Of a stretch of DNA of 64,000 nucleotides, positions 45,550 through 49,133 are shown one piece after another. This stretch comes from an uncultured Chloroflexia bacterium (GTDB taxonomy: Bacteria; Chloroflexota; Limnocylindria; Limnocylindrales; CSP1-4). Under the pieces are notes generated by a model. That model was not told the DNA's origin, did no database searches, and saw only the letters and a program-made list of their open reading frames with translations. Position 1 is the stretch's first letter. The number at the start of each line of letters is the position of its first letter. The translations under genes and the position numbers were made by a program. The stretch covers positions 512,001-576,000 of the forward strand of contig CAWHXD010000007.1 in NCBI GenBank assembly GCA_963833225.1, written 5' to 3'.

Positions 45550-45762
45550 GGGTGGGGCACTCTTCCTCGTGAACGGCTGGCAGGGCCGGGGCCTATGTGC
45601 ACCATAGGCGGCGAAGTGGGCTGTGGTGCAGTCGCTAGAGGTACCAGCCGGGTGTCCCGGTGGTACCGGGACGCACCACCGTTTCGTTCGATCGAGATCC
45701 GCGTGCCGCAGGCTGGAGCCGCCCCGTGACTCATCTCGTCAGCCCGCCCTACCATGGGGGTC

Positions 45763-46838
45763 ATGCAGCCCTTCCAGCACGCTGAGCTCGCCGCCGGTGA
45801 CGCCTTCGACGGCCGCCCCGGACAAGTCCGACCGGTTCGGGCGCGCGCTGCGTGACCTGCGGATCTCGGTGACCGACCGCTGCAACTTCCGCTGCCCCTA
45901 CTGCATGCCGGCCGAGCTGTTCGGGCGCGACTTCGCCTTCCTGCCGCGCGACCAGGTGCTCTCGTTCGAGGAGGTCACGAGACTTGCCGCGATCTTCGTC
46001 GGGCTGGGAGTGACCAAGCTGCGGATCACGGGCGGCGAGCCCCTCGTCCGCCGCGATCTCCCGGTCCTGATCTCGGAGCTCGCGGGGCTCCGCACGCCGG
46101 ACGGGGAGGTCGTCGACCTCACCCTGACGACCAACGGTTCCGCCCTCCGGCCGCTCGCCGGCGCGCTGCGGGATGCGGGGCTCGGACGGATCACGGTGTC
46201 GCTCGACTCCCTCGACGACGAGATCTTCGGGCGCATGAACGGGGTGGACTTCCCGGTGTCGAGGGTGCTCGAGGGGATCGCCGCGGCGCGGTCGGCCGGA
46301 CTCGCCCCGATCAAGGTCAACACCGTCGTCCGGCGTGGCCTCAACGAGGCATCGATCCTGCCCCTGGCGCGCTGGGCGCGCGAGGAGGGGCTGATCCTGC
46401 GGTTCATCGAGTACATGGACGTGGGGACGACCAATGGCTGGCGGCTCGACGACGTCGTGCCGGCCGATGAGATCCTCGCGAATGATCGATGCCGAGCTGC
46501 CCCTTGAGCCCGTGGCGGCCAACTACCGCGGCGAGGTCGCGGGGCGTTACCGGTACCTCGACGGCGGCGGCGAGCTCGGCGTGATCGCTTCCGTGACGCG
46601 GCCCTTCTGCGGTGATTGCACGCGAGCCCGCCTCTCCGCCGAGGGCTCGCTCTACACGTGTCTGTTCGCCGCGACAGGGACGGATCTCAAGGGGCCGTTG
46701 CGGGACGGGGAGAACGACCAGCAGCTTGCGGACCGGATCCGTGCGGTCTGGACGGTCAGGGCCGATCGGTATTCCGAGCTCCGGAGCGAGGCGACCGAGC
46801 GGCTGCCAAAGGTGGAGATGTTCGCCCTCGGCGGGTGA
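45763..46838 (+). CDS. moaA: GTP 3',8-cyclase (frameshifts near 45780 and 46480)
   Basis: [35 protein letters not shown]-terminal GG. TACCAT 7 nt before ATG 45763; in-frame GTG 45797 is the alternative start. Confidence 0.94.
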
Positions 46839-46930: not shown

Positions 46931-47086
46931 TCGGCCCGGCGGCTCGGCCCGGGCCCGGCTCCAGCTGGCCCGGTCCGGCTCGAGCTGGCCCGTTGGCGCG
47001 GCCCGGGCCCGGCTCCGGCTGGCCCGGCGGCTCCGTGCTGGCCCGTTGGCGCGGCCCGGGCCCGGCTCCGGCTGGCCCGGCGGCTC
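46931..47086. repeat. GC-rich direct repeats, 53-bp period
   Basis: Identical 50-mers at 46984-47033 and 47037-47086, with a degenerate copy upstream. Confidence 0.85.
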
Positions 47087-47226
47087 GCGTGGCGGTCGTT
47101 GGGATGTGCCGCACGATGTCGTGCCCGTACGGCGGGCGACTCGATGCCACATAGGCGCCCGGGACCATGATCCTGAACGTCGAGCGGGAGCGACGATGAC
47201 CGGACCATCGCAATGGCCGGAGGGCG

Positions 47227-47277
47227 GGCCCCGCCGCGAGCAACGGGAGGCCCCGCCGCGAGCAACGGGAGGCCCCG
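47227..47277. repeat. 22-bp tandem repeat GGCCCCGCCGCGAGCAACGGGA
   Basis: Exact copies at 47227 and 47249 plus a partial third. Confidence 0.85.
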
Positions 47278-47324
47278 GCCCTCCACGTAAGTCGGCCGTA
47301 AGTGCCCCGCGGGATCATTCGCCC

Positions 47325-48101
47325 ATGGGAACCCGAGAGTCGCCGGCGGATCGAGGCCGGAGAGCGGCACGGGTCATGCTGGGCATGTGCCTCAGCGAGC
47401 TTCGCGGTGCACGGATGGCCGGCGGGCTCAGCCAGCGGGAGCTTGGGGCTGCCAGCGGCGCGAGCCGGCAGCGTGTCGCCCGGCTGGAACGGGGTGAGGT
47501 CGCCACCCCGGACCTGACGCTGATCGGGTCAATGGCTGCCGTGCTCGGGCTCGCCATGCGCATCTCCATGTATCCGGAGGGCGAGCCAGTCCACGACCGC
47601 GTCCAGCTCCGTCTGCTGGCGACCTTCCGCGACCGCCTCCACCGATCGATCAGGTGGCGCACCGAGGTCCCGCTCCCGATTCCCGGGGACAGGCGCGCAT
47701 GGGACGCCGTCGCGATCAGCGAGGACGGCGGCTGGACGGGCATCGAGGGGATCAGCCGCATGGGCGCAGTTGACGCCACGCTGCGACGCGTGAACCAGAA
47801 GCAGCGCGACGACCCCAGGGTCACCCGGGTCGTGTTGGTCATCAGCGACACGGTTCGCAACCGGGACGCGCTCCGGCTGGGGGTCGCGACCGTTCGCTCG
47901 GACTACCCCCTCGAGACCAGGGGTGTGCTCGAGGCGCTCGGTCGCGGCCGGACGCCACCCCTGAACGGGGTTGCAGTCATTCGCGTCTCAGCGGATCGTC
48001 CACAGGCTGTCCACACCCGTGGGAAACTCGTGGACGGCGAGGCCCGGTCGTCCGCGGACTTCGTGGACAACCCCGTTGGACGCCTGCCGCCGGGCCGGTA
48101 G
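47325..48101 (+). CDS. XRE-family HTH fused to a PD-(D/E)xK nuclease-like domain
   Basis: LRGARMAGGLSQRELG..VARLERG HTH, then WRTEVPL..RAWDAV..GIEGISR. Confidence 0.75.
   Translation: MGTRESPADRGRRAARVMLGMCLSELRGARMAGGLSQRELGAASGASRQRVARLERGEVATPDLTLIGSMAAVLGLAMRISMYPEGEPVHDRVQLRLLATFRDRLHRSIRWRTEVPLPIPGDRRAWDAVAISEDGGWTGIEGISRMGAVDATLRRVNQKQRDDPRVTRVVLVISDTVRNRDALRLGVATVRSDYPLETRGVLEALGRGRTPPLNGVAVIRVSADRPQAVHTRGKLVDGEARSSADFVDNPVGRLPPGR
47996..48070. promoter_or_regulatory. Phased cluster of DnaA-box-like 9-mers
   Basis: TCGTCCACA 47996, CTGTCCACA 48007, reverse boxes at 48018, 48029 and 48062 (TTGTCCACG). All offsets are multiples of 11. Confidence 0.6.
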
Positions 48102-48104
48102 CGT
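48076..48104 (+). promoter_or_regulatory. Sigma70-type promoter for the downstream ncRNA
   Basis: TTGGAC-17 nt-TAGCGT, 6 nt before the predicted 5' stem at 48111. Confidence 0.5.
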
Positions 48105-48110
48105 ACCCAG

Positions 48111-48435
48111 TGTCCGAGGGGGCCGACGGAGGCCCGCAGCGGAGGAGATCACCTCAAGGACGCTGCACCCGGTCAGGCCGAGATCACCTCAAGGCCCGAC
48201 TGGCGCCCGGCCCGCGATCACATCAAGGGTCGGTGCGCTCTCCGGTTTCCTCGGACGCTTCGTCACCACCGCAGGGTGGCCCGCGAGGGTCGGCCCGCGA
48301 TGGGCGCCCGGAAGGACGCGATCGGCATCCCGGTGTCGGTACTCCTGCCGGGCGTCGAAGTTTAAGGCGCACCGCTTCGCGCCACTCGAGGTGCACCGCG
48401 GGTCGCTGGCGCGGAATAGGGCCTGGGCCCGGACA
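48111..48435 (+). ncRNA. Candidate ~325-nt rod-shaped RNA (6S/Ms1-like) with repeated hairpin motif
   Basis: Nested complementary segments from TGTCCG/CGGACA inward to GACGC/GCGTC. Three copies of GAGATCACCTCAAGG (third has two mismatches). No credible ORF. Confidence 0.55.
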
Positions 48436-48455
48436 GGGTCCGGAACCGCCTCAGC

Positions 48456-49133
48456 TCACGCGTCCAGGGTTCGCCTCGGGGCCTCCGCCGGAGCCCGGTC
48501 GATCGTCGGGTCCGTCCCGGGCGAGGCGCAAACGTAGTAGCGCAGCCGGTGGCGGCCGTCGTTGCGAACGCGATGACGACGACCGGGCAGGATCCGGATC
48601 CCCTTGAGCGGTTCGAGGATCTCCTCCACGCTGCCCACCTGGATCGTCCCGCGGCCCTCGAACACCACGATCGCGTGCTCCGATCCGGGATGCCGGTGCC
48701 AGGCATCCTCGTGACCGGGAGCGATCTCGACCTCGGTCACCGTGAATGTCACGGACCCGAAATCGCCGGGCTCGACAAGCAGCGTGCGGCGGATTCCGTC
48801 GTCTCCGACAACCCGTGCCTCGGACCGCCGGCGGACCGGCTCGCCATCGTCGTGCCAGCGGGGCAGCGCCACCCCGGCCCGCGCTGGATCGATCTCGACC
48901 GCGGCCATCAGGGCCAGCGCGTCGAGGGTCCCCTCGTTGCGGACCCGGTGCAGCTCGGCCGGTGCCTCGTAGAGCACGTCACCCGCCGTGACGACCGCCC
49001 TGCGGGACATCCCGTCGCCATGCTCGAACACGAGCTCGCCACCGGCGAGATACACGATGCTCTCGACGCCGTGGCGGTGGGGGCCGATCTCCACTCCGGG
49101 CGCGATCCGGTTGAACTCGAGGCGGATCGTCAT
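48456..49133 (-). CDS. Tandem cupin domain protein
   Basis: Two HxH..E..H cupin motifs (PHRHGVES..ELHRVRN; WHRHPGSE..RHRVRN). Confidence 0.88.
   Translation of the reverse strand: MTIRLEFNRIAPGVEIGPHRHGVESIVYLAGGELVFEHGDGMSRRAVVTAGDVLYEAPAELHRVRNEGTLDALALMAAVEIDPARAGVALPRWHDDGEPVRRRSEARVVGDDGIRRTLLVEPGDFGSVTFTVTEVEIAPGHEDAWHRHPGSEHAIVVFEGRGTIQVGSVEEILEPLKGIRILPGRRHRVRNDGRHRLRYYVCASPGTDPTIDRAPAEAPRRTLDA

Follow-up and report, generated by a model that had tools for sequence, protein, structure and literature searches.

A clamp-and-loop small RNA with its own promoter in uncultured Chloroflexota, identified by comparative sequence analysis

Introduction

RNAs of the CsrB/CsrC and RsmX/Y/Z type present one short motif, that of CsrA/RsmA, in several hairpins; the number of motif copies varies, a genome holds several paralogues, the transcripts end at a terminator, and the promoters of the Rsm RNAs share an activator site upstream. 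Among protein-dependent attenuator leaders are those of pyr operons, with their PyrR-binding loops. Here we describe a locus that resembles each of these designs in part. It lies in a 64,000-nt stretch of DNA (hereafter the window; contig CAWHXD010000007.1, positions 512,001 to 576,000) from an uncultured Chloroflexia bacterium of the order Limnocylindrales, where comparative evidence identifies positions 48111–48365 of the + strand as the gene of a structured small RNA, previously undescribed and equipped with its own, probably box-controlled promoter. Our literature searches found no description of this RNA.

Two RNAs known to bind RNA polymerase, 6S and Ms1, are both kept beside one particular neighbour gene, which for Ms1 encodes a HAD-IB hydrolase; the Ms1 locus lies near the replication origin (PMC9130861, in part). 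Further, unrecognised classes of RNA-polymerase-binding RNAs are expected (PMC11077062, in part). A first-pass annotation of the window, made from its letters only, had placed our locus in this company: it read 48111–48435 as a rod-like RNA of about 325 nt with a central bubble and a thrice-repeated 15-nt motif, and proposed a lineage-specific RNA that binds RNA polymerase or acts as a sponge. The comparison with relatives bears out a structured RNA that is specific to the lineage, lacks an annotation and has a promoter of its own, and changes its extent and its fold.

Results

A conserved element of about 255 nt

A homologue of 48111–48365 is present in 32 of 36 genomes of the same genus, and the element occurs once in the window genome (3.89 Mb, 86% complete). 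All same-genus alignments span the window from about 48111 to 48360–48383 and nothing beyond. In the multiple alignment, conservation sets in a few bases 3' of the −10 box, and the transcript would start at about 48110–48112. The features that delimit the element are as follows.

47998–48068, + strand: four upstream boxes, GTCCACA at 47998–48004 and 48009–48015, and CGTGGAC in the opposite orientation at 48029–48035 and 48062–48068 (letters and conservation)
48076–48104, + strand: promoter called from conservation, with TTGGAC (−35) at 48076–48081, a 17-nt spacer and TAGCGT (−10) at 48099–48104
48357–48365, + strand: last conserved letters, GAAGUUUAA, the probable 3' end region
48366–48435, + strand: non-conserved sequence outside the element, unrelated between genomes

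Since conservation ends at GAAGUUUAA and the sequence that follows is unrelated between genomes, the element measures about 255 nt and not 325. The 3' arm of the proposed rod (48367–48435) is shared by no relative. The nested pairings that had defined the rod, those of CGGACA, GGGCCT, GGCGC, CGCGGGTCG and GCGCACCG, are present as letters but are neither conserved nor used in the minimum-energy fold, and the central bubble, which rests on 48367–48435, is for this reason not a conserved feature. The supposed anti-repeat CTCGAGGTG at 48385 likewise exists as letters within non-conserved sequence. The + strand of the longer interval does fold better than shuffled controls (48111–48435, z = −3.18; − strand, z = −1.86), and with the corrected boundaries (48110–48366) z is −4.40, none of 200 shuffles being as good (− strand, z = −2.67). 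A simple consensus scan of 47900–48600 found no canonical terminator.

The promoter proposed from the window sequence is borne out by the relatives. Its arrangement, TTGNNN, 17 nt, TANNNT, is kept outside the genus as well as in all 29 same-genus homologues that were aligned, the −35 hexamer being TTGACC in most cases. A consensus promoter scan of 47900–48600 scored no promoter, because the −35 hexamer of the window matches the consensus at three of six positions; the call therefore rests on conservation and not on the window's own letters.

Two adjacent domains with compensatory changes

RNAalifold applied to 28 same-genus sequences gave 68 base pairs arranged in two adjacent closed domains, with the following parts.

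48112–48256, + strand: 5' domain, a clamp helix P1 (48112–48131 pairing with 48238–48256) around three motif hairpins (RNAalifold, pair counts)
48136–48166, + strand: hairpin 1, loop motif GAGAUCACCUCAAGG at 48145–48159; helix 3, both-side changes at 2 of 6 pairs
48170–48202, + strand: hairpin 2, loop motif GAGAUCACCUCAAGG at 48180–48194; helix 5, both-side changes at 4 of 8 pairs
48210–48230, + strand: hairpin 3, loop motif GCGAUCACAUCAAGG at 48214–48228; helix 7, both-side changes at 2 of 4 pairs
48257–48361, + strand: 3' domain, closed by helix P3 (48257–48261 pairing with 48357–48361; RNAalifold, pair counts)
48324–48337, + strand: invariant apex of hairpin P5, GGCAUCCCGGUGUC, identical in 28 of 28 and 16 of 16 aligned sequences

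The claim that each motif copy caps its own hairpin is thus supported by the fold and by compensatory changes among relatives, which also occur at three of ten pairs of outer P1. P3 begins on the base immediately after the clamp and encloses a variable hairpin, a GNRA-capped hairpin (48279–48290) and the long hairpin P5 (48303–48356). Among relatives, the GNRA tetraloop varies within its class (GCGA, GCAA, GUGA or GAAA), and the stem pairs flanking the P5 apex switch from C–G to U–A. Many conserved, invariant G–U pairs are compatible with the + strand only.

Both-side changes were found at 15 of 68 pairs in the genus alignment (shuffled mean 8.5; alignments slid out of register, 1–4) and at 37 of 68 in a family alignment of 37 rows (shuffled mean 17.2; slid controls, 7–17). 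In neither case did any of 500 shuffles reach the observed count, although these statistics overstate the support because the relatives are not independent, and the figures are to be taken as support and not as probabilities. The 37 rows come from at least 10 genera, were fitted to the model and so lean towards it, and include four partial reverse-strand rows. Two candidate rearrangements were set aside: a pairing of the loops with the 5' side of P5 has no consistent covariation, and a strand swap between the clamp and P5, which might have served as a switch, is broken in the window lineage.

The region is not the ORF-poor gap it had been taken for, as four open reading frames (ORFs) of 57–188 aa overlap it. 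It is nevertheless exceedingly improbable that the element, instead of being an RNA gene, encodes a small protein, is a site that works at the DNA level or folds by chance. Two of the ORFs reach 165 and 188 aa, a good fold can arise by chance where DNA is rich in G+C, GATC is present in each loop, and the upstream boxes resemble sites of a replication initiator. On the other side, relatives differ by one-base indels and by gains and losses of whole hairpins of about 35 nt, which excludes a reading frame, and none of the ORFs has a Pfam match. Moreover, the compensatory changes lie far above controls, the strand asymmetry of the G–U pairs fits an RNA, and the conserved promoter sits exactly where conservation starts.

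A repeated loop in variable copy number

The letters of the repeated motif are as first reported: the 15-nt GAGATCACCTCAAGG is found exactly at 48145–48159 and 48180–48194, and the variant GCGATCACATCAAGG at 48214–48228. Most members of the class described below share a 13-nt loop consensus, G(A/C)GAUC(A/G)C(A/C)UCAA, which in most genera reads GAGAUC(A/G)CAUCAA; hairpin 3 carries this majority form. The form with CACCUC is peculiar to the window genus, most genera having CACAUC. A possible likeness of CACCUC to the 3' tail of 16S rRNA had raised the idea of an anti-Shine-Dalgarno mimic, which was set aside, most genera having the other form.

Among 60 distinct sequences, a scripted count gave one loop in 22, two in 5 and three in 33, a count that is too low for at least five sequences showing four to five loops (L039, L049, L051, L090 and L092). 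The RNA is about 170–350 nt long among relatives because the number of motif hairpins differs. The loop itself appears able to fold, through two purine–purine mismatches and a 3-bp helix, into a structure topped by a triloop with variable letters.

Loops of this kind could be seeds that pair with target RNAs, the clamp providing stability. The exposed loop letters are invariant and repeated within and between paralogues, multi-copy seeds are known in the small RNAs 6C and RsaE/RoxS, and Hfq, of which none was found in the window genome, is dispensable in many Gram-positive-type lineages. We nonetheless regard base pairing as quite unlikely. A search with the loop complement, although of limited informative value, brought up no target that is conserved. 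Its matches in the window genome are ordinary coding sequence; at 30 loci from other genomes, 36 occurrences comprise 18 that are the RNAs themselves and 18 with no clamp start upstream, mostly coding; and a self-folding loop with variable triloop letters suits a shape-specific protein site better. As a separate observation, in one genome, on many short contigs (G139), the loop 11-mer or its complement turns up 19 times, in several cases 7–19 nt from a contig end, which suggests that the word is part of a repeated element in that genome.

The wider class and its distribution

A search with the upstream box led to three paralogous loci in the window genome (C19:920121, C19:161451 and C8:72967). 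All three share the two-plus-two boxes, the promoter, the first letters UUGCCCGAAGGGGCC and the closing strand GGUUCCUUCGGGC, and the clamp formed by GCCCGAAGGGGCC with GGUUCCUUCGGGC also closes the paralogous RNAs.

G000:C19:919905–920240, − strand: paralogue L074, about 180 nt, four boxes; directly upstream of a NUDIX-type hydrolase ORF
G000:C19:161370–161540, − strand: paralogue L075, 76 nt, one motif-type loop GCGAUGACAUCAA; conserved in many genera
G000:C8:72860–73130, + strand: paralogue L076/L089, about 160 nt, three hairpins that repeat another loop, AGGUGCUUGCACAG

None of the three loci has an Rfam match at E up to 1. The start of the NUDIX ORF downstream of L074 is flanked by a small helix (GCUUUC ... 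GGGAAGC). The gene downstream of L075 encodes a membrane protein and has TANNAT 6–8 nt before its GTG, a leaderless-type start, and L076/L089 lies upstream of an ORF for a CPBP/CAAX-type membrane protease.

In the common architecture, the very 5' end of the transcript base-pairs with a distal strand to form a clamp of 13–20 bp around one to at least five hairpins, with 1–5 such RNAs per genome. A covariance model of the window element detected a single copy in each of 73 genomes, out of 108 in the family to which the window genome belongs, f1 (23 of 27 genera in the draw from the order), and two weak matches only among 42 genomes of the sister family f2, whose genomes are of 1 Mb. The combination of box, promoter and RNA start was found in 102 of 111 f1 genomes (101 of 110 without the unpublished genome G218), from 47 of 49 genera and in 1–4 copies, with none in the reversed control. 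In other families of the taxonomic class this strict pattern matched 0 of 209 genomes. The covariance model, however, also matched 3 of 55 genomes of family f4, and all three loci prove to be clamp RNAs that agree with the f1 members in box, promoter and loop. Because the f4 clamp begins with U and not G, the zero is an artefact of the strict pattern, and a restriction to one family would be wrong.

A relaxed pattern (clamp start, 12–42 nt, loop) matched 58 of 82 f1 genomes and 91 of 94 f4 genomes (83 of 86 without eight unpublished ones), with none in the reversed control. It matched none in the three sister families (f2, 0 of 12; f3, 0 of 61; f5, 0 of 1) and none of 178 genomes in other families of the phylum; the pattern undercounts, as the window RNA itself is missed. 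From these searches, the RNA is a member of a lineage-specific clamp-and-loop class, seen only in the two families f1 and f4 of uncultured Chloroflexota. The f4 members carry the loop with no phosphorylase gene nearby, the neighbour that characterises the window element (below).

The ten letters after the clamp are rich in T: 50% in 23 other members and 41% in 8 members of the window type, against a background of 14%. In one f4 member a classical hairpin and U-run terminator then follows. It is plausible that the clamp and the U tract together act as a transcription stop.

Upstream boxes

The last of the four boxes abuts the −35 hexamer, and this −35-adjacent box, GTGGAYAA, is kept in all aligned homologues. 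The window has three box-like 9-mers in a span of 75 nt, whereas the rate over the whole genome is 0.1 per kb, and the boxes are probably binding sites of a transcription factor. They resemble what we take to be the DnaA box, the replication-initiator site, of high-G+C bacteria. There is no box cluster near dnaA in the window genome or in the complete genome G006, and in the latter the box 8-mer is scarcely enriched (100 matches, against 79 for the reversed control).

Elsewhere in the window genome, a ParA/Soj-type gene, parA, is preceded by two exact copies of the box 9-mer and a third that nearly matches (G000:C8:444241–444283). Many near-matches to the box pattern also fall in a stretch richer in A+T (G000:C5:1–11000), which is more probably a compositional island than an origin. 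The possibility that the box is a general promoter element of stable RNAs was also rejected: it is absent before the signal recognition particle (SRP) RNA and tmRNA, and stands before 1 of 56 aragorn-called genes.

The neighbouring genes and a possible leader function

In relatives, moaA, the RNA and a purine nucleoside phosphorylase gene lie in this order on one strand, followed by a cupin gene on the opposite strand. Among 67 distinct loci of the window RNA type, the phosphorylase gene is downstream in 65, two loci end too early to tell, and none lacks the gene; moaA is upstream in 59 of the 67. From the invariant loop to codon 1 of the phosphorylase, the median distance is 117 nt. The window genome has no phosphorylase gene at this place, the best remaining relative in the genome being 25% identical, and the gap between the RNA and the stop of the cupin gene (48456–49133, − strand) is only about 90 nt long (48366–48455). 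The RNA is intact despite this loss, with every invariant letter and pair kept.

Two further peculiarities of the window lie upstream. An ORF of 351 aa with an HTH_3 domain (47046–48101) is found between moaA and the boxes and is absent there in the relatives examined; its 3' end overruns the conserved boxes and the −35 region. The moaA gene, a single ORF in relatives, is split into two overlapping ORFs, a radical-SAM part (45623–46507) and a C-terminal domain (46434–46838), through a frameshift or an assembly error.

The constancy of the downstream gene raises the possibility that the RNA, and its 3' domain in particular, is a cis-acting leader (an attenuator or a riboswitch-like element) of the phosphorylase mRNA. 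The choice between a stop at the clamp and U tract and the release of the ribosome-binding site (RBS) by a downstream hairpin would then fall to a loop-binding protein or to a ligand of the 3' domain. In keeping with such a leader, the phosphorylase gene follows on the same strand at all 65 loci with room for it, and the 3' domain is a three-helix junction with an invariant hairpin, as in many aptamers. In addition, at 8 of 15 loci read, all in other genera (L056, L058, L067, L052, L061, L064, L069 and L050), a hairpin that buries the RBS stands directly 3' of the RNA with no terminator between them. Its letters, GCGGGCC..CCUCGG ... CCUGGAGGCCCGC-AUG (also written GCGGGCC ... GGAGGCCCGC-AUG), pair with the gene's GGAGG, and the arms co-vary in L050 and L064. 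Co-transcription of the RNA and the phosphorylase gene is likely at those loci.

Other observations make this reading unlikely, though it deserves serious consideration. In the window genus the RBS hairpin is absent and the phosphorylase has its own conserved TANNNT box 6–7 nt before the ATG, a leaderless arrangement, yet the RNA is still fully conserved; in the window genome itself the gene is lost and the RNA intact. In the paralogues and in f4, the neighbours of the 5' domain with its loops are unrelated genes or a terminator, and a loop number of one to five is unusual for an aptamer. No alternative pairing is conserved, the clamp/P5 swap being broken in the window lineage as described above, and no known riboswitch or leader class in Rfam 15 matches the element.

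The same facts govern the comparison with PyrR leaders. There, too, a repeated hairpin loop occurs in several leaders per genome, upstream of nucleotide-metabolism genes (here a phosphorylase and a NUDIX hydrolase), with a helix and a U tract following. However, the genes downstream of other members of our class are unrelated to nucleotides (a membrane protein and a CPBP-type protease), several downstream genes have a leaderless-type promoter of their own, and no antiterminator alternative was found for the window class.

Comparison with known RNA families

In the window, none of the Rfam 15 families scores at or above its gathering threshold. At E up to 10, only chance matches of the microRNA type appear in 47900–48700 and in 19 homologous loci. 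The RNA is not a divergent SRP RNA, because the SRP RNA of the genome is on contig C8. A weak DNA match near dnaA (C6:96331) lies inside the rpmH coding sequence and is due to chance.

A search for 6S RNA (RF00013) at E up to 1 found none anywhere in the 86%-complete genome, so that the niche of an RNA-polymerase-binding RNA may be open. The element shares with 6S a similar size range, a conserved and strong-looking promoter and a fixed downstream metabolic gene. With Ms1 it shares a length of about 230–300 nt, a high-G+C host, restriction to a lineage, a conserved neighbour and perhaps the property of being missed by Rfam-type searches (PMC4191392 and PMC9130861, both in part). The habit of 6S and Ms1 of keeping to one neighbour gene (PMC9130861, in part) and the expectation of more unrecognised classes (PMC11077062, in part) would accommodate a functional analogue here.

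Such an analogue is very unlikely, however. Unlike the rod with a central bubble, the conserved fold consists of two adjacent closed domains, the bubble once proposed falls in non-conserved sequence, and no Rfam model matches. Membership of a multi-copy family whose paralogues have interchangeable, modular loops is not a trait of 6S or Ms1. The differences from Ms1, an actinobacterial RNA, extend to the host phylum, the fold and the neighbours, which are moaA and the purine nucleoside phosphorylase gene and not that of the HAD-IB hydrolase. The window RNA also lies 0.7–1.1 Mb from dnaA, taken as a proxy for the origin, in four of four single-contig genomes. A search of one supplement file of PMC9130861, a paper that lists 824 Ms1 loci, did not find the loop motifs there. 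Of the two functions first proposed, the link to RNA polymerase finds no support, there being no 6S match and neither the synteny nor the position of Ms1; the sponge-like character fares better, with a loop number from one to at least five and a loop that recurs in paralogues.

Discussion

The reading to which we lean, with somewhat less than even confidence, is that the RNA is a decoy or scaffold for an RNA-binding protein. The loops would be its working parts, binding sites for one common trans-acting partner, and the RNA would act in the manner of Csr/Rsm-type RNAs, its level being set by a transcription factor at the upstream boxes. A protein is favoured as the partner because the loop number drifts freely, the loop looks shaped and no conserved complementary target appeared in the searches made. 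The 3' domain, present only in the window member, may add a cis effect on the phosphorylase gene, which is possible because the RNA and this gene are probably co-transcribed in most genera. A decoy role in trans and a leader role in cis are not mutually exclusive.

The Csr/Rsm RNAs are the closest parallel to such a decoy. The window class has, like them, several hairpins exposing one motif, a variable copy number, several paralogues per genome and a terminator end, and its paralogues share a site upstream of the promoter as the Rsm RNAs share theirs. The differences are that the window loop is another sequence, of 13 nt and able to fold on itself, and not the short CsrA/RsmA motif; that a long terminal clamp encloses all hairpins; and that a further, 3' domain and a fixed neighbour gene come with the window member. 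Sequestration of a protein is, for the window class, a proposal.

Several findings weigh against a decoy. Covariation is never seen among the letters of the loop, and by this measure a protein site with a structure of its own looks the same as a seed for base pairing. A search for CsrA (PF02599; E up to 0.01) gave no match in the 86%-complete window genome but did so in control genomes, and Hfq was not found in the window genome either. The phosphorylase gene accompanies the RNA at every locus with room for it (65 of 65), a closer bond than the general gene order shows (moaA at 59 of 67), the RBS-burying hairpin stands directly behind the RNA at about half of the loci read, and every paralogue lies upstream of a protein gene in the same direction. 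The kinship of the aligned relatives, already noted, tempers the shuffle statistics as well.

A broader picture, which we hold to be doubtful, would give the two Chloroflexota families a global control similar to Csr/Rsm. One to five decoy RNAs per genome would sequester, through a new 13-nt loop, a hitherto unrecognised RNA-binding protein, and one box-binding factor would govern them all. The DnaA-like box would couple the system to replication or growth, and the member described here would link it to purine salvage.

To our knowledge, almost nothing is known of RNA-based regulation in the Chloroflexota, which seem to be without the common RNA chaperones and sponge partners, CsrA and Hfq having gone undetected in the window genome. 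The locus also illustrates a limit of reading a single sequence, as the most striking long-range pairings in the window are the non-conserved ones. A family supported by covariation, with a shared box, clamp and loop, offers a handle on this regulation: the hairpin could be used as bait to capture the partner, and the box to capture the regulator. With a covariance model built from the family, several intergenic regions now left blank would be annotated in a few hundred genomes from soil and freshwater.

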